A stretch of 64,000 nucleotides of DNA. Source: Enterobacteria phage Ac3. The stretch lies in the sequence record OK040907. One strand, 5' to 3'. The notes beneath the pieces are model-generated. The model saw only the letters and a list, made by a program, of their open reading frames with translations, did no database searches and was not told where the DNA came from. A program made the translations under genes and the position numbers. This document shows, one piece after another, positions 30,964-44,015 of the stretch; the first letter of the stretch is position 1; every line of letters starts with the position of its first letter.

Positions 30964-31141
30964 CTAAACGAATAGGTTCATGAATGCCATATCCTTGAAC
31001 AGAAATTTCTGTCGTAGGATAAATTCCATCAATATCACCCATATTCCAGGCTTCATTAAATTGCTGTTCGCCTGAATTACTAAACCACTCGGCGAAAGCA
31101 TTTAGCACATCTTTAGAACCTTCAATAATTATCTTTGCCAT
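30920..31141 (-). CDS. hypothetical protein
   Basis: 73-aa ORF. Confidence 0.45.
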   Translation of the reverse strand: MAKIIIEGSKDVLNAFAEWFSNSGEQQFNEAWNMGDIDGIYPTTEISVQGYGIHEPIRLVEYDLCTGEEVKYD

Positions 31142-31503
31142 TACAAACTCTCAGTAAAGGTACGAGCGATAACGTCGCGCTGCTGTTCCGGAGTCAGAGA
31201 GTTAAAGCGAACTGCATAACCGGATACACGGATGGTCAGCTGCGGATATTTTTCCGGATGCTTAACTGCATCTTCCAGAGTTTCACGACGCAGAACGTTA
31301 ACGTTCAGGTGTTGACCACCTTCAATTTTAACTGTAGGTTGTGTTTCAATTTCAATTTCACGGGCATGCAAACCGTAGAAAATTTCTGGGTCTACAAAAG
31401 AGTCCTCTTTAAAGGTTTTAGAGACAATAATTCGTGCTTGAATACCATCTTCAAAATAAATAGTACCTTTATGTGTGCCTTCAAGAATTTGATATGCTTT
31501 CAT
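31141..31503 (-). CDS. autonomous glycyl-radical cofactor (GrcA/YfiD-like)
   Basis: C-terminal ~60 aa [61 protein letters not shown] matches E. coli GrcA including the RVSGY glycyl-radical motif; 3' half has E. coli-like composition, 5' half is phage-like. Confidence 0.8.
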
Positions 31504-31510
31504 ATAAACC

Positions 31511-31840
31511 TCAATTAGAAAATAAATTTATCCAAGATTGTTCTTTAATTAAAAATGGCTCAGAATCATATGCCATTAAACTTTGGGTGATTAGTCCTTT
31601 AAAAGGTCCATCAATAAATTCCATGGTAAAATATGGAATTTTATTCATTAACTGCGCGTTAGGAGCAGTGCACAAAACTCTGCATCCTTTGAATACGCCT
31701 TTTTGTAATTTGTATTGCTTGGGATAAAATTCGCTCAAAATGTTATTATTTGCCAAAATTTCAAAATGATTCACCAATTTATTTTTAATAGTTTTTGGCG
31801 AAAAATAAAGATATTCGAAAAGCTGTGTGTCTGTCATCAT
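31511..31840 (-). CDS. hypothetical protein
   Basis: 109-aa ORF. Confidence 0.5.
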
Positions 31841-32427
31841 TGCATTCCAATCACAAAAAATTGAGGACGAACTGTTTCACCTGTTTCAGCATTATAGCTT
31901 CGACAACAGTGTTGTACCGTTTTAATATGGATATTGTAAATCTTATCCATATCAGGAGCTTTAATAGGTTCGTCAATTATGTACAAGATACGAGAAAGCG
32001 ATAACCCACGGAATTTATGACCTTCATTACCGATAAAACTACGGACAGAATCAGTAAATAAACGGAATCGAATATCATCGCTAGAATAACGAGAAAATTC
32101 TTTTTCAATGTTGCCAGCAGAAATTTTAGCGTAAGCTGAAGTATTAGAAAGAACAATAACTGTTCCGCCATCATACAGCCAATTAGCAGCAAAGTTAGTC
32201 ACAGCAATTGATTTACCGGATTGACGTCCACCATCTATACGAAGTGTGCAGTACTGTTTGAGCACATCTTCCATTGGTGGAAGATAATCATTCTTACAAA
32301 TTTCTTCTACTCTAGCATCAGAATGGTGTGTAAAAGCATTCATCAGGGATAGATAAGGACCAGTTAAAAATGTTCTCATTTTATTCTCTCTAAGTTTGGG
32401 CCATTCCGTGGCGCATGAATTGTCCAT
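31837..32427 (-). CDS. P-loop NTPase-like protein (start may be internal)
   Basis: GGRQSGKS Walker A-like and IIDE Walker B-like motifs. Confidence 0.5.
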   Translation of the reverse strand: MDNSCATEWPKLRENKMRTFLTGPYLSLMNAFTHHSDARVEEICKNDYLPPMEDVLKQYCTLRIDGGRQSGKSIAVTNFAANWLYDGGTVIVLSNTSAYAKISAGNIEKEFSRYSSDDIRFRLFTDSVRSFIGNEGHKFRGLSLSRILYIIDEPIKAPDMDKIYNIHIKTVQHCCRSYNAETGETVRPQFFVIGMQ

Positions 32428-32520
32428 TTCTGTATTTACCCATTACCGCACTTGGGCTCGACCTTATCACAGGTTGGCGGGAATCCCTCATAGAATCATG
32501 AGGTCCAGGTTGTTCCCATA

Positions 32521-32994
32521 TTATTTGAACGATTTAACGTACTGAATAGAACCCTTACTATTCACAAAGGCAATTTTACCATTTTTATTATACATGGTAG
32601 CAGTACGCTGATAACCATAGGTTTGTTTACCAGATTGATAACCAACTAATGCAAAATTATCTTCACCCATTTTATTCTGTTTAGCGCGAATGCGTTCATG
32701 ACCATGTGCCATAAGAACCTTAGCATCACCAGTTGCAATGGATCGACGAGTTTTTTCATCTTCAACTGCATTAACAAAGTCGTCAAATGAATCAAATTTA
32801 GCATGAGATTTATTATACAATTTTCCATCTACTGCATAATTATATCCCTGTACATCCATCTCAACTTCTGTACCATCATCCAATACAGCAGTAATTTTTT
32901 GACCTTTTTTAAATTTCAAAAGATCAGTAAAAGATTCAGCAATAATTTGAGAATTAATAGCTGCTTCAGTGATAAATTCTTGATATGTTTTCAT
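32521..32994 (-). CDS. internal head protein with capsid targeting sequence
   Basis: 157 aa starting MKTYQEFITEA, the conserved N-terminal targeting sequence of T4 internal proteins; adjacent to denV as T4 ipII/ipIII. Confidence 0.65.
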   Translation of the reverse strand: MKTYQEFITEAAINSQIIAESFTDLLKFKKGQKITAVLDDGTEVEMDVQGYNYAVDGKLYNKSHAKFDSFDDFVNAVEDEKTRRSIATGDAKVLMAHGHERIRAKQNKMGEDNFALVGYQSGKQTYGYQRTATMYNKNGKIAFVNSKGSIQYVKSFK

Positions 32995-33003
32995 GGGTTT
33001 CCT

Positions 33004-33420
33004 TTAAATGTAAATATTTTTACCGTAATACTTATACCAATGTGGTTTCATTAAAATTTTTTCATCAAGTCGTTGTTGACTCAATTTAATAGCTGATTTG
33101 CATGGATTATAATCATTTTTCCATTCTATTGGAATATCGCTGATGTCAGGAACTTCAGTATCTTTTATACTGAACCCGCGTTTTAAGCATTCCGTTATAA
33201 TGTCTAATTGACGCTTTCGCAAAAATTCTAACTTATCGTAAAAGAACGTAACATGACCAGAACCTAAAATAAACTCGGAAGATATTTTAAAATCTTTAAC
33301 GCGCTTACCGTTTGCCACATGCTTACGAACTATACCAAAAACACGCGGCAATTCACGGTATTCTGCGATTAAATGTTGATCAGCAAGTTCAGATACTAAA
33401 GTCAAATTAATACGAGTCAT
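33004..33420 (-). CDS. denV: endonuclease V (pyrimidine dimer DNA glycosylase)
   Basis: 138 aa [29 protein letters not shown]... matches T4 DenV. Confidence 0.9.
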
Positions 33421-33443
33421 TTTATCCCTCCAAGTAACTGTGA

Positions 33444-33476
33444 ATATACTATCACAATTCTAGGAGAAAGTAAACA
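33444..33476 (-). promoter_or_regulatory. T4-type early promoter
   Basis: minus-strand GTTTAC -35 and TAGTAT -10 upstream of denV. Confidence 0.45.
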
Positions 33477-33479
33477 ACT

Positions 33480-34448
<969 letters not shown>

Positions 34449-34467
<19 letters not shown>

Positions 34468-34937
34468 TCAGTGATAAAGTTATTTAAATTTTGAGTATAT
34501 TTCTTTTCATCAAAAATCTTTTGTTGTCTGCGTAGCCGCCATGGCATTTCAATGAACGTGTACCATATCCCAGATAATATTGCTGCAGTAAAAATATTAA
34601 CAAGTATGGTTAAAAGAATCCAATCTCCTATTCTGTCCATTGGATTTTTTATAAAAAAGTAAAATACGAATGATGTCACAGGAAGACTAATAATATACCA
34701 CAGAATCATAATTTTATCTGTGAACCAATCAGCGTTCGTTAACTTAGCGCGACCATTATGAATACACACGAATTTATCATCTGTTATAATAGATGGCTTA
34801 GCTGCTTGATATCCCATTCTAAACTCCCTAATCAACAAATTTTTCATATCTTCGGAACAACCATTCCAGTCAACTCTATCAACTGAAATGCCATCATCCC
34901 CATCATCTAAATCATACCAGCGAGTTTTTAAAATCAT
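34449..34937 (-). CDS. membrane protein (C-terminal ..ECRKLK tail family)
   Basis: 162 aa, hydrophobic helices. Confidence 0.5.
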
Positions 34938-35239
34938 TTAATTTTCCTACAATCACTCACAAACTCTTCCATTGATTCTTTTTCAATATAAGACATGTAG
35001 CTATTATATTCCTTTAATTGTATTTTGTAATCTTTTTTTCTTTGCCAATTTATTTTAAAATTATCATAATGAAAATATAACATGGTACCAAAGAATGAAA
35101 ATAATGAAATCGCTATAGTATAATGAAGTTCACTCCAAACTTCTATTATATCTATTATACCGCTGACGTTACTACGGATGTTTAAAATAAGACAGTCAAT
35201 TAACAATCCAAAAAGACTACCCGCAAGAGCTGCAGCCAA
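34934..35239 (-). CDS. membrane protein (C-terminal ..DCRKIK tail family)
   Basis: 101 aa, hydrophobic N terminus. Confidence 0.5.
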   Translation of the reverse strand: MAAALAGSLFGLLIDCLILNIRSNVSGIIDIIEVWSELHYTIAISLFSFFGTMLYFHYDNFKINWQRKKDYKIQLKEYNSYMSYIEKESMEEFVSDCRKIK

Positions 35240-35289
35240 CGCTACAGCAAAAATTAAAAATGACTCAGGAAGAGAATATTTGACTTTAT

Positions 35290-35683
35290 TCAGTTCTGGC
35301 TTTTGCAGCGGCTCTCTTTTACGAATTTCATGATTTCATCAAATTCGTGAGCCGCCAGCTTCAGCTGGTGTTCTTTCTTGATTTTCTTGCACTGCGCTTT
35401 CCAGTCACGAACACGTTTGCGATAATGACGACCCTGGTACCAGTAACCGATCCAGTTGATCGGCACGAGCAGGAGCGGAACCACCAGCGGCAGGATCAGG
35501 GTAGCGCCGAAGATTGCGCCGGATTCGATATCAGTCATAACGTCGATAACCATACCGGCAATAACCAGAATAACAAAAGAGACCACAACCACCGGACCGA
35601 TCAGCACGTCAGTGGAGATAATTTGGCGCTTCAGTTCGTATTTCAGTGGTTTGCTCGGCAGGTACAGAGACGGTTTGGACATA
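35290..35683 (-). CDS. membrane protein (same family, E. coli-optimal codons)
   Basis: 130 aa from ATG 35683 (MSKPSLYLPSK...), two hydrophobic helices, basic tail ending ..ESRCKSQN; ORF track extends to 35703 through native sequence. Confidence 0.55.
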
Positions 35684-36259
35684 TTCTCTACATTCCTTAA
35701 CAAATTTTTCTAATAATAAATCGCTTTCAAAATTGGGATTTTCTACGAATTTATCAAAAAGATCATCGACAATAGTTAAGATATTCTTTTTACTAAGAAT
35801 ACGTTTATTTTCATATTTTGTTTCAGAGTCAACTATAAGAGTAAAGAAATATTTCTTGCCCTGAAATTTTACAGTAGTATCAATATAGAATAAATTTGAC
35901 TTTTGTAAATTACGTTTAAACCATGCATCACTTAAACTATAAACGCCAAGATAATCATAATCGTCGTTTAAATAACAGACCGTCCATTCAGGAGAAACAA
36001 AATCAGTAAATTCAACGTCAAAATCGCATGTTAATAAATGAATTGATTCAATACTGTTAATAAGTATTCCAGGACGTATTAAAGACTTTTTACCTCTAAA
36101 AAATCTTCCAGAAAGACTTTCAACAGTTTCATATGAAGAACCCCAATAATAATTACGTCCTTCTGCCATACGTTTAAGAGCATTTAATAATTGGTCTGGA
36201 ACATCAACCTGTCTTTGGAACTCTTCAAACATTGAATTGAAATCACTTTGCATTTTCAT
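35609..36259 (-). CDS. hypothetical protein (true 3' end probably near 35690)
   Basis: 216-aa ORF; last ~25 codons read through the recoded gene in another frame, so the native stop appears lost; ..KFVKECREY resembles the family tail. Confidence 0.5.
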   Translation of the reverse strand: MKMQSDFNSMFEEFQRQVDVPDQLLNALKRMAEGRNYYWGSSYETVESLSGRFFRGKKSLIRPGILINSIESIHLLTCDFDVEFTDFVSPEWTVCYLNDDYDYLGVYSLSDAWFKRNLQKSNLFYIDTTVKFQGKKYFFTLIVDSETKYENKRILSKKNILTIVDDLFDKFVENPNFESDLLLEKFVKECREYVQTVSVPAEQTTEIRTEAPNYLH

Positions 36260-36280
36260 TCCTACTTACTCCAAGTAATA

Positions 36281-36294
36281 GGGGCCGAAGCCCC
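36281..36294. terminator. GC hairpin (terminator-like)
   Basis: GGGGCCGAAGCCCC palindrome between genes; no clear T-run on the minus side. Confidence 0.35.
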
Positions 36295-36300
36295 TTATCA

Positions 36301-36894
36301 TTATTTCAGAGAATTAATATATTCCTGAACATCGGCAGAGGTAGTTTCAACCCCAGAAATATTACCATTAAAGGTTTCAACTCGAGCAAGAGTATCTTCA
36401 ATATCAACCTTAGTCAGTGCTGCAATTTCAACTACATCATCAGCAGTACTAATTCCAAGGGCATTCGCGGCGCGAGTTTCACGGATATATTCCAATTTAA
36501 CTGCAAGTTCTTGGCGAGCATCATCTAACTCAACTACTTTCTTGGCAATTTCAATTCGCATTTCAGCATAACCATCAGCTTTAGTAGTCAACTGCTCAGC
36601 TGTTCGACGATATAGTAAACCAAGTTTAGCATGCATTGTTACATCTTGACCTTCCGAAAGGAGCTTGCGAATTTCACGCTCTTTTGATTCGGCCTGCTTA
36701 TTCTTTTCGACAATAAGTTCACGAATACGCTTTTCTTCATTAATAGATTTAACAGAAGCAGTTTTTAGATCTTTAATTTTATCAAGCAATTTTGCTGCTG
36801 CGGCAGTATACTGCTCTTCAACAGATAGATTTTTAGCCATAGCAGAACCAAGTTTAGTGCGAATAAACTCAACAATTTTCTTCAGTGTGTTCAT
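36301..36894 (-). CDS. coiled-coil hypothetical protein
   Basis: 197 aa, helical, heptad-rich. Confidence 0.5.
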
Positions 36895-36937
36895 AGTATT
36901 TCCTTAGGTTGATTAGAAATTAAAATCTGCAGAAGAA

Positions 36938-37471
36938 TTATATCATGCTACTTAAGAGATGTAAACTATTTTTAATTTTACAAATTCGTTCAGCTTCTTC
37001 AACAGCGGCAGTGATAATGCTTTTAGCTATAGGAGTACTAATATTAGTAGCTTTTACACTTAACACGATTTCTTTATCTTTACCAGGCCAACCCCACGAT
37101 TTTTCACCATGAGTGCCTTTAATTACAGCAGACACCTCAAGTGAGCATCCATTATCGCATGTTTTTACATTAACAACCCAAGTGTCACTTTTCTCAACCG
37201 GTTTATCCCAGTAAATATTAAGAATACGTGGGACATCAAATTTAGCAGGGCAAATCTTAACCGTAAGACCTTCGCTTTCTAGCCAATTAATAAGAGGGCG
37301 TTCATACATGCGGCGATGTGGGCTTTGAACTCGACAAGCTTTGTACCCATTGCTTGCGGCTTCACTAAGCTCTTCTAATACATGCTTTTGCATTATTGAT
37401 AAGATACCATCAAAAGATTTTTCGGAAGTTTCATTCAGTTCGGTATAAAGAGACATAACAGTTTTCCTCAA
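36938..37471 (-). CDS. hypothetical protein
   Basis: 177-aa ORF. Confidence 0.5.
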   Translation of the reverse strand: MRKTVMSLYTELNETSEKSFDGILSIMQKHVLEELSEAASNGYKACRVQSPHRRMYERPLINWLESEGLTVKICPAKFDVPRILNIYWDKPVEKSDTWVVNVKTCDNGCSLEVSAVIKGTHGEKSWGWPGKDKEIVLSVKATNISTPIAKSIITAAVEEAERICKIKNSLHLLSSMI

Positions 37472-37512
37472 ATTATAGGCTCATAATATCTCAATCATGA
37501 GCCTATGTAAAC

Positions 37513-37776
37513 TTATTTCATATTATTGAAATATTCTTCTGCGATTTCGTCGTTATCATGGTAAACTTTAGAAGACAGTTTAACATAACCTTCAGCAGTG
37601 AACATGTTAATCACAACCTTTACAGTATACCACTGACCATCTTCATTACCCATTACTGCGTAAGTTTCAAACATCGGATGATCAGGACCGATAACTTTAA
37701 TATCATTCACTGTACGACCAAAATCTTCTGAAACACATTTCATAAAGAAGTTGAACAGTTCACCGTAATTATCCAT
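37513..37776 (-). CDS. hypothetical protein
   Basis: ATG 37776 with GGAGAA SD; ORF track starts at a TTG at 37788. Confidence 0.5.
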   Translation of the reverse strand: MDNYGELFNFFMKCVSEDFGRTVNDIKVIGPDHPMFETYAVMGNEDGQWYTVKVVINMFTAEGYVKLSSKVYHDNDEIAEEYFNNMK

Positions 37777-37817
37777 TTCATTCTCCAAGTTGTTTTCTGT
37801 ATCAGTAGTTGATAGTT

Positions 37818-37851
37818 GTATAGTACCATAGAAGAACAGGGATGTAAACAG
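37818..37851 (-). promoter_or_regulatory. T4-type early promoter
   Basis: minus-strand TTTCACAAAACTGTTTACA (-35) and TACTATACAACTATCAACTA (-10 region). Confidence 0.5.
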
Positions 37852-37982
37852 TTTTGTGAAAAAATTTTTAAAAAGTTTTGGGGAATTCTAGGGCAGGGAG
37901 GGGAAATCAAAGGATAGGATAATATATTATAAAGGGTAGAAACTAAATGATGTCTAGAGAGGCCTGGAAAGGCCTAGATACC

Positions 37983-38010
37983 AAAAAGCCCCAACCTTTC
38001 GGCTAGGGCT
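37983..38010 (-). terminator. rho-independent terminator
   Basis: hairpin AGCCCTAGCCGAAAGGTTGGGGCT then TTTTT on minus strand; near-duplicate of element at 38551. Confidence 0.5.
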
Positions 38011-38017
38011 AAGAATG

Positions 38018-38491
38018 TTATTTGATTTGTTTAGCAGACCAAATGCGGTCTTTAATAATTTTTTGAATGTCTTCAACATACTCAAGAGAGTGAGCATGTG
38101 GGTTATCTTTGAAACTATAAGCACGAGCTAGTTTTTGGCCTTCAGTTTTGATTACTAAAAGCTCTTTAAGGATAGCTTCATATTTGGAGATAATTCCTTT
38201 AACAATATTTTTCTCTTGTGCGACTTTAGGATCTGCTTTAGGAGCAGGTTTACCCGAAGCCTTTGCAAAAGCAGCGCCAGTAGCAACTAAACTTTTCCAG
38301 GCCATACTAACTGCATTTCCCGTAAATCCTTCCGCTTTCATGTCGCGTGCGAACTGGAATCGCGATTCATCAGAAGCATCTTTGTAAGAATATTTACCCG
38401 CTGCAATGGCTGCTTTTGCGACAGCTTGAATTTCGGTGCTAGATGCTTCATTTAACACCGCTTCATTTAAAAATTGAGTATATGATTTCAT
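38018..38491 (-). CDS. internal head protein-like (capsid targeting sequence)
   Basis: 157 aa starting MKSYTQFLNEA; late-promoter TATAAATA upstream. Confidence 0.6.
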   Translation of the reverse strand: MKSYTQFLNEAVLNEASSTEIQAVAKAAIAAGKYSYKDASDESRFQFARDMKAEGFTGNAVSMAWKSLVATGAAFAKASGKPAPKADPKVAQEKNIVKGIISKYEAILKELLVIKTEGQKLARAYSFKDNPHAHSLEYVEDIQKIIKDRIWSAKQIK

Positions 38492-38542
38492 CTTATTTCC
38501 TGTTTTAATTCGTGGATTTAATATACTACTATATTTATACCA

Positions 38543-38550
38543 AAAAGCCC
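38543..38550 (-). promoter_or_regulatory. late promoter TATAAATA
   Basis: minus-strand TATAAATA about 50 nt upstream of 38491. Confidence 0.45.
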
Positions 38551-38579
38551 CAACCTTTCGGTCGGGGCTAAGCCTTGCG
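38551..38579 (-). terminator. rho-independent terminator
   Basis: hairpin AGCCCCGACCGAAAGGTTGGGGCT then TTTTT on minus strand, at the distal end of the tRNA/RNA cluster. Confidence 0.5.
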
Positions 38580-38599
38580 GCAACCTTGTCGGGGTTCCA

Positions 38600-38880
38600 C
38601 CTGCTAAGGCAAGTGTTTGTACGAAACGCCGGGATTCGAACCCGGTTATCAAGCAGTTGACGCTACTCAATATTTTTAAAAGGCCATATCTCGACCATAT
38701 CCGAACGTTCCGTCAAAAACGCTACTCGGCTTACGGCAAAGATATTTCCTCGAATCGATAATTCGGTGCGCCGTTTCTGCTGTGATATAAGGGGCATTAA
38801 CAAAACATAAAGATTTATTAATGCCAGTCCTTAAACAGGGAACATCAGTCCGACGACTTACCGGTAGCGACCCGGTTTCT
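38600..38880 (-). ncRNA. candidate small stable RNA(s), tRNA-like (compare T4 species 1/2 RNAs)
   Basis: No coding frame; minus strand has a perfect tRNA T-arm CCGGGTTCGAATCCCGG (38622-38642) and other hairpins but no complete cloverleaf. Confidence 0.3.
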
Positions 38881-39230
38881 TAATATTCTTTTAAAGCATC
38901 AATTTGTTCACGGCGTTTACGCCATAAATCAATTGCTTCATAAGCAGATTCAGCATTTCGAATTAGCCGACATTTATGTAAAGACTTATGATTTTGATAT
39001 TGTGTAGATAACGGAATTTTATCTAAAAGGTCTTTACGTTCAAAATATTCGTAACCATCTAAACCAAATGAACGATTTTTGAGAAATTGCCAATGACCAA
39101 ATTCGTTTTCGACATAAACATAATCTGCATGCTGATAAAGCAAATTAATTACACGTTCAGAAATAACAGTATCATTATGATTAAAATAGAATGTTAAATC
39201 ATGAACTACTAAATAAACATTGCCTTTCAT
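38880..39230 (-). CDS. hypothetical protein
   Basis: ATG 39230 with GAGGA SD; the longer ORF-track start at 39278 would lie inside tRNA-Arg. Confidence 0.45.
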   Translation of the reverse strand: MKGNVYLVVHDLTFYFNHNDTVISERVINLLYQHADYVYVENEFGHWQFLKNRSFGLDGYEYFERKDLLDKIPLSTQYQNHKSLHKCRLIRNAESAYEAIDLWRKRREQIDALKEY

Positions 39231-39248
39231 ATTTTCCTCACTTATAAT

Positions 39249-39325
<77 letters not shown>

Positions 39326-39329
39326 TATT

Positions 39330-39404
39330 TGGCGGACATGCATGGATTCGAACCATGGACCAATTGATTAACAGTCAACTGCTCTACCACTGAGCTACAC
39401 ATCC
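39330..39404 (-). tRNA. tRNA-Asn (anticodon GUU)
   Basis: Manual cloverleaf: D-arm TAGCTCAGTGGTAGAGC, anticodon loop CTGTTAA, T-loop TTCGAAT, CCA encoded. Confidence 0.8.
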
Positions 39405-39408
39405 AAAT

Positions 39409-39495
39409 TGGTGGGGAGTGATGGAGTCGAACCACCCGAGTCGCAATGACAATGAATTTACAGTCCACACCGCTACCTCTACGGGATAACTCCCC
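39409..39495 (-). tRNA. tRNA-Tyr (anticodon GUA), type II with long variable arm
   Basis: Acceptor GGGGAGT/ACTCCCC, anticodon loop CTGTAAA, T-loop TTCGACT, CCA encoded; D-arm register slightly irregular. Confidence 0.65.
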
Positions 39496-39507
39496 TAATT
39501 CATAATT

Positions 39508-39582
39508 TGGTGGCCCTGGGTGGAATTGAACCACCATCTGGCGATTATGAGTCGCTTGCTTGAACCTTCCAGCTACAGGGCC
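39508..39582 (-). tRNA. tRNA with CAU anticodon (Ile2/Met)
   Basis: Acceptor GGCCCTG/CAGGGCC, anticodon loop CTCATAA, T-loop TTCAATT, CCA encoded. Confidence 0.8.
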
Positions 39583-39583
39583 T

Positions 39584-39659
39584 TGGTGCTGATTGACGGA
39601 ATCGAACCGCCGACCTTCTCATTACAAGTGAGTTGCTCTACCTACTGAGCTAAATCAGC
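39584..39659 (-). tRNA. tRNA-Thr (anticodon UGU)
   Basis: D-arm TAGCTCAGTAGGTAGAGC, anticodon loop CTTGTAA, T-loop TTCGATT, CCA encoded. Confidence 0.85.
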
Positions 39660-39664
39660 AAAAC

Positions 39665-39754
39665 TGGCGGAGGTGATAGGATTCGAACCTATGAATCGCC
39701 GGAGCGACTGCCGGTTTTCAAGACCGGTGCATTCAACCACTCTGCCACACCTCC
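39665..39754 (-). tRNA. tRNA-Ser (anticodon UGA), type II
   Basis: Acceptor GGAGGTG/CACCTCC, anticodon loop CTTGAAA, long variable arm, T-loop TTCGAAT, CCA encoded. Confidence 0.85.
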
Positions 39755-39760
39755 AAATAT

Positions 39761-40411
39761 TTATATATTGTTAATTTGATTTAGAATTCTTTTTGCTTGA
39801 GTATGACTTACGCCAATATGCTTAGCATATTTAGATAATTCACCACGCTTAGAAAAATCATATAATTTAGAAATTTCTATTCTTCTTTTTCTTTCATCCG
39901 CAGAAACTTTTGCTTCGTTTGCTTTTGCTATTTTACGTTTAGCTTCTTGAGAATGAGTTTTACCAGCAAAGCCATTCTTCATTAATCCATTTGAAGACCA
40001 TCCTTTTAATTTTCCGTTAGAATGTGCCTTTTTAACACCCAATGAAATTAATTCGCGCTGCTGATCTGTCATAGGATAATTATTTATATGATCCCATCCA
40101 CCTTCACCGCCAAGTTTTAAATTATACACATCTGGTCTATTTAAAAACTCTTCTGTAACAATATTTTTCTCGGCTTCAAGCATAGATTCTTTATCATCAA
40201 AATACTCTAATATTTCTTTAGAAAAATTTTCTATACCATATTTATCTTGGGCTCTTTTTAATAATTTACCAGAACCCATATATCCATCATCTAAATTTTC
40301 GGTAGAATGCACACCAATATAAATTTTATTATTAATTTTATTTGTTATTTTATAAAGATAAAAATGCATATCAGTCCCTAATAAAGAACTGAGCGTCTCA
40401 CGACGAGTCAT
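39761..40411 (-). CDS. segB: GIY-YIG homing endonuclease SegB-like
   Basis: 216 aa; FYLYKITNKINNKIYIGVH GIY-YIG motif; embedded inside the tRNA cluster. Confidence 0.8.
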   Translation of the reverse strand: MTRRETLSSLLGTDMHFYLYKITNKINNKIYIGVHSTENLDDGYMGSGKLLKRAQDKYGIENFSKEILEYFDDKESMLEAEKNIVTEEFLNRPDVYNLKLGGEGGWDHINNYPMTDQQRELISLGVKKAHSNGKLKGWSSNGLMKNGFAGKTHSQEAKRKIAKANEAKVSADERKRRIEISKLYDFSKRGELSKYAKHIGVSHTQAKRILNQINNI

Positions 40412-40414
40412 AAA

Positions 40415-40489
<75 letters not shown>

Positions 40490-40493
40490 AAAT

Positions 40494-40580
40494 TTGGTGC
40501 GAGAAGTGGGACTCGAACCCACAAGGAAATCATTCCGCAGCATTTTAAGTGCTGTGCCTTTACCAATTTGACCATTCTCG
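40494..40580 (-). tRNA. tRNA-Leu (anticodon UAA), type II
   Basis: Acceptor GCGAGAA/TTCTCGC, anticodon loop CTTAAAA, long variable arm, T-loop TTCGAGT, CCA encoded. Confidence 0.85.
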
Positions 40581-40581
40581 C

Positions 40582-40654
40582 GCTGGGAATAAAGGACTCG
40601 AACCTTTGCATCCTGGAATCAAAATCCAGTGCCTTACCAACTTGGCTAATTCCC
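40582..40654 (-). tRNA. tRNA-Gln (anticodon UUG)
   Basis: Acceptor TGGGAAT/ATTCCCA, anticodon loop TTTTGAT, T-loop TTCGAGT; 1 nt from tRNA-Leu. Confidence 0.85.
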
Positions 40655-40752
40655 AATTATTAACAAAGGCTCTCAAGCAAGAACCCTTGATGATAGAGGG
40701 TATTAATCAGTGCGGTATGAGTTAATAATAACAAATAATTCTTAAAGCATAT

Positions 40753-41040
40753 TTACCATTTATGATAATACATATTTACGATGCACTCAAGACCCAAAGG
40801 ATTCTTGAAAATATCATATTCAAGAGGACCTTTTTCTGTTTCAATAAAGAAATCAAAATTTACTGTATTAAATTTATGGTCTTCCTTCACTAATTTAACT
40901 TGAGAAGATGAACGGTCAATGTAAACTTTTTCAACTTCAAAACATGTTAAAATACCATAATCATCAATCAAGGCTTTAGCTGCTTCTTGATCATATTTAT
41001 ATCCATTTTCAATGGATGATACTTTTGCATAAAGAATCAT
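40753..41040 (-). CDS. hypothetical protein
   Basis: 95-aa ORF. Confidence 0.5.
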   Translation of the reverse strand: MILYAKVSSIENGYKYDQEAAKALIDDYGILTCFEVEKVYIDRSSSQVKLVKEDHKFNTVNFDFFIETEKGPLEYDIFKNPLGLECIVNMYYHKW

Positions 41041-41043
41041 TAT

Positions 41044-41463
41044 TTACCCTTCATCAACAATAGTATGAGTGTGGGCATTTACAATTTGCCACCAATCAAA
41101 GCGATTAGAACCATACATTGGTTTGTTCTCATTTTCTTTGATAATGTCACGGAGTTCATCTTCGGTAGCGGCTTTCGCGATTAAATCAGCATATCCACCG
41201 CGAGGATAATAATTATCACCTGCAAAAAGTAAAAAGTTTGGTTTAATGTTATTGAACTCTTCAAGAGTAATAACTGTTCCACCAGGTTGAACAATATCTA
41301 CATAACTATATCCTAATTTTTGAGCAGCATCTACTGCTTCAAGCAGGGTATCATGAGCCCATCCAATTTGGCAATCTGGCTTTTCAGATGGATTAGCCTG
41401 ATAATCTGCATATACTTTATACATTCTACTCACCTTTAGAAATTTTATCCATAACGATAGCAA
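41044..41463 (-). CDS. hypothetical protein
   Basis: 139-aa ORF. Confidence 0.5.
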   Translation of the reverse strand: MLSLWIKFLKVSRMYKVYADYQANPSEKPDCQIGWAHDTLLEAVDAAQKLGYSYVDIVQPGGTVITLEEFNNIKPNFLLFAGDNYYPRGGYADLIAKAATEDELRDIIKENENKPMYGSNRFDWWQIVNAHTHTIVDEG

Positions 41464-41611
41464 TTAAACCAATTAAAAATGCTACTACAAGTGAAAATAC
41501 ATTTTCTGCTGTAGTTAATAATCCGCATATAAATCCAACAAACATTGAAAAACTAAAAGCGGAAGCAGAAATTGCAATAGCAACATTTCGAATTAATTCA
41601 CAACGTTTCAT
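41426..41611 (-). CDS. small membrane protein
   Basis: 61 aa, mostly hydrophobic. Confidence 0.45.
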   Translation of the reverse strand: MKRCELIRNVAIAISASAFSFSMFVGFICGLLTTAENVFSLVVAFLIGLIAIVMDKISKGE

Positions 41612-41637
41612 TTTATTCTCCTCAGTAGTTGATAGGG

Positions 41638-41670
41638 TAATAGTATCACAACTAAAACCCTATGTAAACA
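41638..41670 (-). promoter_or_regulatory. T4-type early promoter
   Basis: minus-strand TTTCACAAAGTTGTTTACA (-35) and TGTGATACTATTACCCTATCAACTA (-10 region). Confidence 0.5.
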
Positions 41671-41681
41671 ACTTTGTGAAA

Positions 41682-41939
41682 TTATTTTAAATCTTCTAAT
41701 CGTTTCTTCATCTTAGAACCATTTTTAGCGATTTCTCCTGCGTCAGAGCATAATGCTAAAAGTGCTTTAACTTTAGTTTGGTCTCCTTTAAAAGACGAAG
41801 GATCGACTGCAGCAGCAAGTTCTTTAATACGAGAGAAAAGACGCTCAGCTTCAGCTAAAGCCATTCCAAGCTTTACTTCCATACCATGAGAAGATTCAGT
41901 GATAATAGTTTCTGTAGCAAACTCTTTATAAGTTTTCAT
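41682..41939 (-). CDS. internal protein I-like (capsid targeting sequence)
   Basis: 85 aa starting MKTYKEFATE; position next to 57B as T4 ipI. Confidence 0.6.
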   Translation of the reverse strand: MKTYKEFATETIITESSHGMEVKLGMALAEAERLFSRIKELAAAVDPSSFKGDQTKVKALLALCSDAGEIAKNGSKMKKRLEDLK

Positions 41940-41969
41940 TTTATTTTTCCTAATTAATTTTGATGAGGT

Positions 41970-42001
41970 AATAGTATCACTACCTCATCATCGTGTAAAC
42001 A
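41970..42001 (-). promoter_or_regulatory. T4-type early promoter
   Basis: minus-strand GTTTACA -35 and GTGATACTATTACC -10 within an inverted repeat. Confidence 0.45.
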
Positions 42002-42012
42002 ACTTTGTGAAA

Positions 42013-42709
<697 letters not shown>

Positions 42710-42710
<1 letters not shown>

Positions 42711-43435
42711 TATAGTACCTTTAGTGTATTTTTAATTTTAGAAAAAAGTTCTTCAAGAGAACCATCGTTTGTAATTACTAAATCACCATCACGAATTGGC
42801 AATCCAGCTTCTGTAATATGTGTATCATTGGATTTTTGACCAGGACGAACTACATGAATTACTGTAGCACCCATCGCCCTAGCCGCATCCATTTCATGAT
42901 CTTGACGAGTATCAGAAACGATATAATAATCATAACCTGAGTTAAATTTATCAAGATAATCTAAAGCAAATAATTTTACCCAGTACATGCGGTCGAAGTT
43001 ATTAACAATCAAATCCGTACCTAGGGCTTGCATCAGACGACGGACTGACCATTGATCTTCAATATTATTTATAACGTCAATAATCTTGTTAAATGCTACG
43101 GAATTAACTGATTCTTTTCCTTCGTCATCAAAAACAAACACACCTTTAATTGGGCTTTTACCATTAAGATAGCAAAATGCTTGTTCCATAATCGTGATTA
43201 CTTCTAATTTAGTCAGATTTAAATTAGTCTCACGATCATAGTCAATTCCTTCAAACTCTTTACGGGTTAAGCAAGGATAGTCAGTGTTTGCCGCAAATAC
43301 TCCCCATGCATAAGCCAATGCATCCTTAATAGGACCAGCAAGTTGGTATTTAACTGCAGAATAATTGCTCATGATAAAATCAGCAGTAGTATCTTTTCCA
43401 CTACGCTTTACACCGCTTAAAAAGATTAGTTTCAT
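42710..43435 (-). CDS. 1: deoxynucleoside monophosphate kinase
   Basis: 241 aa from ATG 43435 (MKLIFLSGVKRSGKDT P-loop) with GGAGA SD; ORF track starts at an upstream M. Confidence 0.9.
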
Positions 43436-43484
43436 GTGTTTCTCCTCAAATTTAATTAAGATTATAACACACAAAACTGAAGCA

Positions 43485-44015
43485 TTAAACTTCCGCTATA
43501 ATTTTTCCATCTTTTTCTACTTGAAAATAGGTGTAAGGAATCGTTGCAGTACATACTAAAGCCGGGTCTGAATCTTCTGTGTAGCTAAATTCTACTTCAG
43601 ATAGGTCAGAAACCCAAGGCTTATAAAAATTTATTGACATCACTATTTCAGTTTTGCTATTATCTAAGATGTAAAGCGTAATGTACTCAGGACCTGTTTT
43701 TTGGGCAGTATTTTCACCTGTAAGATAGTTGCTAGTTCCTAGCATCCATTCATACATTCCTATCCACGACTTAAGTTCTTCATCAACTATAAATCTCACA
43801 ATGAGTGGATCATACTCAAATGTAACACCTGGACGTTGTGCTCGGCCCAGTCCAAACGGCCCAGTCACGGTATCAGTAACAGGTATTCTAATTCCTGGAA
43901 TAGGAACTGACTGAGCATTTAAAGTAAAAGCAGATGTAGTATTACTATGTGGTATTGATACTACAAAGTTAGTTGTATTTGCTTGGTTAAAAATTTGTTG
44001 CAGAGCTTGCGACAT
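43485..44015 (-). CDS. 3: gp3 tail tube terminator / sheath stabiliser
   Basis: 176 aa from ATG 44015 with GAGGA SD; gene order 3-2-4 as in T4. Confidence 0.85.
   Translation of the reverse strand: MSQALQQIFNQANTTNFVVSIPHSNTTSAFTLNAQSVPIPGIRIPVTDTVTGPFGLGRAQRPGVTFEYDPLIVRFIVDEELKSWIGMYEWMLGTSNYLTGENTAQKTGPEYITLYILDNSKTEIVMSINFYKPWVSDLSEVEFSYTEDSDPALVCTATIPYTYFQVEKDGKIIAEV

Follow-up and report, generated by a model that had tools for sequence, protein, structure and literature searches.

Three genes with a T4-type capsid-targeting leader in a T4-like phage: two known internal proteins and a credible new member of the class

Three small genes of a T4-like phage start with a similar short leader and continue with bodies that share no significant similarity: are all three products internal proteins of the head, and if so, what might they do on reaching a host? 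The question arises from a 64-kb stretch of DNA (the window), in which the first-pass annotation placed open reading frames (ORFs) at 32521..32994, 38018..38491 (the middle ORF), and 41682..41939, with the respective starts MKTYQEFITEA, MKSYTQFLNEA, and MKTYKEFATE. All three are present exactly as described and all lie on the minus strand, a point on which that annotation was silent; reading the same coordinates on the plus strand is ruled out by translations full of stops. In the six-frame translation of the window, the pattern MK[ST]Y..F..E has exactly three matches, each of them the start of one of these ORFs, and a looser version of the pattern recovers the same three places only, compared with mean match numbers of 0.0 (strict) and 0.04 (loose) in 100 shuffled windows. 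Over their first 33 nt, the three genes diverge at numerous bases, synonymous codon positions included; the leader, therefore, is kept at the protein level and does not stem from a recent copying of DNA.

The leader has the properties of the capsid-targeting sequence (CTS) of the T4 internal proteins. Mutagenesis of IPIII assigned targeting to residues 4 and 7 of the CTS and processing to residues 8 and 10, and the gp21 protease cleaves at an L/I-X-E motif, with propeptides of 10-19 residues (PMC9026906). Y4 and F7 are found in all three window proteins and are kept in the homologs of the first protein and of the middle one; these two proteins have all four determinants, whereas the third has Y4, F7, and E10 but A instead of L/I at position 8. 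An L/I-x-E site 10-19 residues from the N terminus is found in each leader. The earlier assignment of a T4-type CTS to all three holds. The proteins are basic and lysine-rich (pI 8.8-9.5). Their bodies, as had also been claimed, are mutually unrelated: with the leaders removed, an all-versus-all comparison that included T4 IPI, IPII, and IPIII gave no significant similarity (cross-matches at E>=0.09), and BLASTP of the body of the first protein against that of the middle one gave E=3.3.

Across the 12.5 kb compared (31000-43500), the window and phages RB51 and RB68 (Tequatrovirus) are ~99.3% identical. We consider it likely that the source of the window is a phage of this type, in which three internal head proteins are encoded at as many separate, cassette-like loci. 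On the minus strand, the genes run gp3, gp1, 57A, 57B, the third leader-bearing gene, and tRNA.4 to tRNA.2; there follow a cluster of nine tRNA genes, with a SegB-like ORF inside it, rnaD, rnaC, and the middle ORF; and then e.8 to e.2, nudE, e, denV, the first gene, and vs.8 to vs.5. The three loci, thus, adjoin denV, lie between rnaC and e.8, and lie between 57B and tRNA.4. Packaging of the T4 kind requires gp21 and a gp22/67/68 core in the same genome, and RB51, 99.3% identical in the region compared, encodes the gp21 protease, the gp22 scaffold, gp67, gp68, and the portal, all outside the window. Several other features of the neighborhood were recorded. The nine tRNA genes (39249-40655) are those for Arg, Asn, Tyr, Met/Ile-CAU, Thr, Ser, Gly, Leu, and Gln, interrupted by the SegB-like GIY-YIG ORF (39761-40411); compared with T4, the cluster includes Asn and Tyr, is without Pro, and has SegB at a different position. 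A 132-aa ORF between tRNA-Arg and rnaD (38880-39278, minus strand) is RB51ORF141 ('similar to RB69ORF150c'), for which RB51 gives a length of 117 aa; in RB68, its annotated 3' end abuts the annotation of rnaD, and T4 is without an ORF at this position. The product of vs.6 (31141-31503, minus strand) is a GrcA-like autonomous glycyl-radical cofactor with the C terminus ...RVSGYAVRF..., and is so annotated in RB68 and T4.

Two of the three genes already have names. The ORF at 32521..32994 (minus strand, 157 aa) is annotated in the RB51 and RB68 records as Ip4 or internal virion protein, its 90%-identity cluster carries the UniRef name 'IpIV internal head protein' (T2), and it matches Pfam DUF7412 and phrog_3155, which PHROG labels as internal protein. 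Its leader, MKTYQEFITE/A (a slash in a leader sequence marks a potential cut), has two gp21-type sites, I-T-E10 and I-A-E20; E10 and E20 are invariant in 14 Ip4 homologs, with I, L, M, or V two residues before each, and cleavage is predicted after E10 and, possibly, after E20. The homologs are 61-99% identical and share many invariant residues. The Ip4 ortholog of Yersinia phage fD1, g129, was flagged as particle-associated by LC-MS/MS, in a list of 113 of 277 proteins that includes non-structural ones and is without N-terminal peptides. The ORF at 41682..41939 (minus strand, 85 aa) is likewise annotated in both records, as Ip5 or internal head protein, matches phrog_3499 (labelled internal protein), and belongs to a UniRef cluster named 'Ip5' (T6). 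Its leader, MKTYKEFATETIITE/S, includes an atypical A-T-E10 and a regular I-T-E15. Given the A at position 8, the K at position 10 of the Bas37 ortholog (bas37_0261), which keeps I-T-E15, and the analogous I-T-E at residues 17-19 of T4 IPI, in keeping with a propeptide length of 10-19 residues, E15 is the better predicted cut, and Ip5 is probably cleaved there.

Neither Ip4 nor Ip5 has a perfect late-promoter box within 80 nt, and the same is true of T4 ipI, ipII, and ipIII; Ip4 has a box with one mismatch 34 nt before it, and for both genes the perfect boxes are found only ~1 kb upstream. Ip5 forms a 331-bp unit flanked by a 69-nt direct repeat on the minus strand, with the upstream copy at 41960..42028 (the end of 57B and a promoter) and the downstream one, 83% identical, at 41629..41697 (the ...DLK* codons and an early-type promoter). 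The repeat includes the last '...DLK*' codons of the preceding gene, 57B upstream and Ip5 downstream, and the early-type promoter GTTTACA...TACTAT. A unit of this build seems well suited to being exchanged as a cassette through homologous recombination.

Among the three, only the middle ORF (38018..38491, minus strand, 157 aa) was previously unrecognised as an internal protein. It belongs to the RB51ORF140/RB32ORF132c family and to phrog_2280, labelled 'unknown function', and neither Pfam nor NCBIfam has a family for it; every named protein in its cluster is called hypothetical or uncharacterised. A tblastn search found homologs in 511 phage records, and in 40 of these, sampled across the ranking, the homolog was a 'hypothetical protein' or unannotated in 40 of 40. 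Y4, F7, L8, and E10 are all there, and the leader, MKSYTQFLNE/AVLNE/ASS, has the sites L-N-E10 and L-N-E15, so that cleavage is predicted after E10, E15, or both. Residues 1-15 of the leader (38447-38491, minus strand) contain an internal duplication, FLNEAVLNEA, from which the two L-N-E sites derive. In an eight-sequence alignment of homologs, E15 is invariant and the L-x-E site is kept; the leaders of close relatives read MKSYAQFLNE, MKTYNEFLNE, and MKSYAEFLTE/QSS, the last representing short-leader relatives, in which the leader has the canonical 10 residues and one site only. Distant relatives, the most remote of them with an N-domain ~30% identical, also keep a leader (MKFKEFLAE, MLEYSEFLKE, MLKFNEFLAE, MINFSDFLNE, MKSFSSFLNE, MISFNEFVDGNLITE), always with Y/F at position 4, F at 7, and L/V at 8, followed by x-E. 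The mature protein has a pI of 9.5 and 20 Lys residues. Its homolog g140 of phage fD1, 99% identical, was listed as particle-associated after LC-MS/MS of purified virions (PMC8309999). Because that proteome is permissive, taking in 113 of 277 proteins, among them DenV, lysozyme, and NudE, and giving no N-terminal peptides (PMC8309999), we count the detection as weak support for packaging. Yersinia phage phiR1-RT was considered as a source of a second virion proteome and set aside, as a homolog in that phage was not established.

The middle ORF sits in a self-contained unit. A perfect T4-type late-promoter box, TATAAATA (38532..38539, minus strand), lies 40 nt upstream of its ATG and is followed by an AGGA ribosome-binding site, and the arrangement recurs around a homolog in a Klebsiella phage, with a stable-RNA cluster, a terminator, TATAAATA, and the ORF. 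Compared with T4, the window has a 559-bp insertion directly after the terminator hairpin that follows rnaC, made up of the late promoter and ribosome-binding site, the ORF, and another copy of the hairpin. The two copies form a 36-nt direct repeat, both of them terminator-like in a terminator scan: the upstream one (38537..38572, minus strand), the hairpin after rnaC, is the only copy in T4, and the downstream one (37978..38013, minus strand), 92% identical, closes the cassette. At the same place, the depositors of RB51 had noted a '34 bp imperfect direct repeat'. In Bas37 (phage KarlGJung, MZ501089), two such units are stacked, and after the last one the backbone resumes at the same CTTTTTGGTAT/CTAGG junction. 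With the gap empty in T4, occupied by one cassette here, and by two in Bas37, the interval between rnaC and e.8 emerges as a third variable ip locus. Variability of these loci, which had been part of the initial claim, is borne out by contents that differ among T4, RB51, fD1, Bas37, Bas39, and Bas42, and in T4, fD1, Bas37, Bas39, Bas42, and the present phage the three loci are filled in varying combinations. In Bas39 (FriedrichMiescher), a further CTS ORF of 105 aa, bas39_0245 (L008 11991-12308, MKTYKEFIAESAAGQRVEGG), annotated as hypothetical, lies between gene e and Ip4, where the window has denV.

The second unit of Bas37 extends the family. Directly downstream of the ortholog of the middle ORF lies bas37_0243, a CTS protein of 187 aa that starts with MKTYAEFLTE/AAKL (L009 8029-8592; MKTYAEFLTEAAKL). 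It is ~28% identical to the middle protein over 104 residues, and an hhalign comparison of the alignment of the middle ORF with bas37_0243 aligned only the 10-residue leader; kinship follows from the full-length match of both to the PHROG 2280 profile. The two Bas37 genes are diverged paralogs placed in tandem, each in a terminator-bounded cassette of the stack. Throughout PHROG 2280, whose phages infect Escherichia, Shigella, Klebsiella, Yersinia, Serratia, Enterobacter, and Erwinia, a common N-domain with an invariant AWKS motif is followed by a Pro/Lys/Ala-rich linker and by one of two unrelated types of C-terminal domain, ending in ...DRIWSxKxIK or in ...VGDVGRHYKKL (the relatives compared being P0009, P0010, P0031, and P0032 versus the window protein, P0029, and P0033). 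This variation suggests domain shuffling. A broader and more tentative reading, to which we give somewhat less than an even chance, is that PHROG 2280 is a large, so far unrecognised family of injected internal proteins of T4-like phages, in which each member would combine the conserved AWKS-bearing N-domain with one of at least two C-terminal domains, the interchangeable C-domains would set the specificity for a defence target, and the rnaC-e.8 interval, with its stackable cassettes between terminators, would be a third locus of the arms race of T-even phages.

How would such proteins act? By analogy with T4, we infer that all three are packaged, cleaved, and injected. The CTS would bind the assembling scaffold core of the prohead, with residues 4 and 7 carrying the targeting; the gp21 prohead protease would then cut after L/I-x-E, at E10 and/or E20 in Ip4, at E10 and/or E15 in the middle protein, and at E15 in Ip5; and the basic, lysine-rich mature proteins would stay in the head with the DNA, to be ejected into the host at infection, where they would most likely disarm a first-response defence against modified T-even DNA. 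As to precedent, T4 Ip1, Ip2, and Ip3 act on type IV restriction enzymes of the GmrSD kind, of which each inhibits a different one (PMC12373910), and Bas37_0260, encoded at the ipI locus, is needed against McrBC, such that its knockout renders Bas37 McrBC-sensitive (bioRxiv 10.1101/2025.11.20.689424). Each of the four small CTS proteins of known function, therefore, acts against type IV restriction. The deletion mutant of IPIII has a host-specific plating defect that is rescued by the leaderless protein expressed in the host. For the window proteins, searches gave few leads: structure predictions produced no match to a characterised protein and no functional clue, neither sequence nor fold comparison pointed to homology with a characterised type IV restriction inhibitor, PDB sequence searches returned nothing meaningful, NCBIfam had no match near the cutoffs, and Pfam had DUF7412 for Ip4 only. 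Function is accordingly assigned by analogy. The proposal of anti-restriction cargo at these loci is plausible, and a putative role against type IV restriction appears to be the most likely one for all three proteins. The earlier description of the three as candidates for uncharacterised effectors stands in part: the middle ORF is indeed unlabelled, but the other two are the named Ip4 and Ip5 of RB51/RB68 and UniProt, and ip4-10 have already been screened against GmrSD.

Could the middle ORF merely resemble an internal protein? Its 5' end would then have come from recombination with an ip gene or arisen by convergence, and the product would be a cytoplasmic late protein, neither packaged nor cleaved. 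The fact that every sampled database record labels it hypothetical would sit well with this, as would the departures of the leader from the canonical form at positions 3, 5, and 6 (MKSYTQF versus MKTYQEF) and the permissive fD1 proteome as the sole source of virion evidence. A borrowed 5' end, however, is at odds with the differences in the first 33 nt, which speak for upkeep of the leader as protein, and with the leader being kept in relatives whose N-domains are only ~30% identical; the dedicated late promoter and the second CTS gene next to the ortholog in Bas37 also tell against mere resemblance. We regard it as quite improbable, and the middle ORF as a credible new member of the internal-protein class.

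The principal rival to an anti-restriction role concerns what packaged proteins are for: all three might act mainly inside the head, as counter-ions of the DNA or as aids to core assembly, in the way reported for T4 IPIII, and their diversity would then reflect weak constraint and not an arms race. Their basic, lysine-rich composition, the contacts of T4 internal-protein lysines with DNA phosphates (PMC3012670), and the slower head assembly of IPIII mutants (PMC9026906) all agree with such a structural or charge-neutralising role. Weak constraint, however, fits poorly with bodies that are well conserved within families (the 61-99% identity among Ip4 homologs, the invariant AWKS in PHROG 2280), which argues for specific folds and partners; the T4 IP genes are dispensable on laboratory strains (PMC9026906), and Ip1, Ip2, Ip3, and Bas37_0260 each have a specific defence target. 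On balance, we hold a mainly head-internal role to be unlikely. The finding of Silas et al. 2025 that ip4-10 of T4-like phages showed no reproducible inhibition of GmrSD systems (PMC12373910) speaks for it as well, and also for injected effectors directed at something other than type IV restriction, that is, another immediate-early defence or a host process, and the swappable C-terminal domains of PHROG 2280 suggest varied partners. That screen, however, covered part of GmrSD diversity, and four of the four small CTS proteins of known function counter type IV restriction, so a different target seems to us somewhat unlikely. An injected protein active against type IV restriction, thus, continues to be our preferred reading for all three.

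Taken together, these results are mostly known biology. What they add is one further, credible internal protein, the unlabelled family to which it belongs, PHROG 2280, and a third locus for cassettes, a result useful for annotation and not a new kind of system. The gain is incremental: both the concept and the motif had been published, as had two of the three genes. Should the PHROG 2280 reading be confirmed, ~500 deposited phage genomes would gain an annotation, and T4-like phages would gain a third variable ip locus along with a new candidate to screen against orphan defences. Because the known internal proteins are narrowly specific disarmers of type IV systems, the set carried by a phage should have a part in determining its range of wild hosts, and this makes the set relevant to the choice of therapeutic T4-like phages.

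Set beside known systems, the window proteins fall at different distances. Ip4 and Ip5 are the same genes, with no difference of substance, as the Ip4 and Ip5 of T2, T6, RB15, and RB70, reportedly described by Repoila et al. in 1994; notes in the RB51 record equate the window-type pair with the T2/T6-type one. Bas37_0260 has the same leader, is encoded at the ipI locus, and adjoins the Bas37 ortholog of Ip5, but it is a distinct 77-aa protein (phrog_8111), and its gene is absent from the window, where the scan finds three CTS ORFs only. Its identity with Ip5 was considered and rejected, as Bas37 has bas37_0260 and bas37_0261 (Ip5) side by side, unrelated to each other; these being different proteins, the McrBC-inhibitor function is not transferable to Ip5. 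The unit of the middle ORF is like the 'moron'-type cassettes of phages in being self-contained, with its late promoter, ribosome-binding site, ORF, and terminator, and in being inserted after an existing terminator with a direct repeat at its bounds. It differs in that a classic moron is expressed from a prophage, to the benefit of the lysogen, whereas this cassette belongs to a virulent phage and has a late promoter. The closest comparison for the trio as a whole is with T4 IPI-III, which likewise are small, basic, and dispensable, start with the leader MKT[YF].EF and an L/I-x-E gp21 site, and share two of the three loci (denV/e and 57B-tRNA.4); they differ in that their mature bodies have no detectable sequence similarity to those of the window proteins and in that the rnaC-e.8 gap, which holds the middle ORF here, is empty in T4. 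It is to the inhibition of a specific GmrSD enzyme by each of T4 Ip1, Ip2, and Ip3 that the putative activity of the window proteins is, by analogy, likened.
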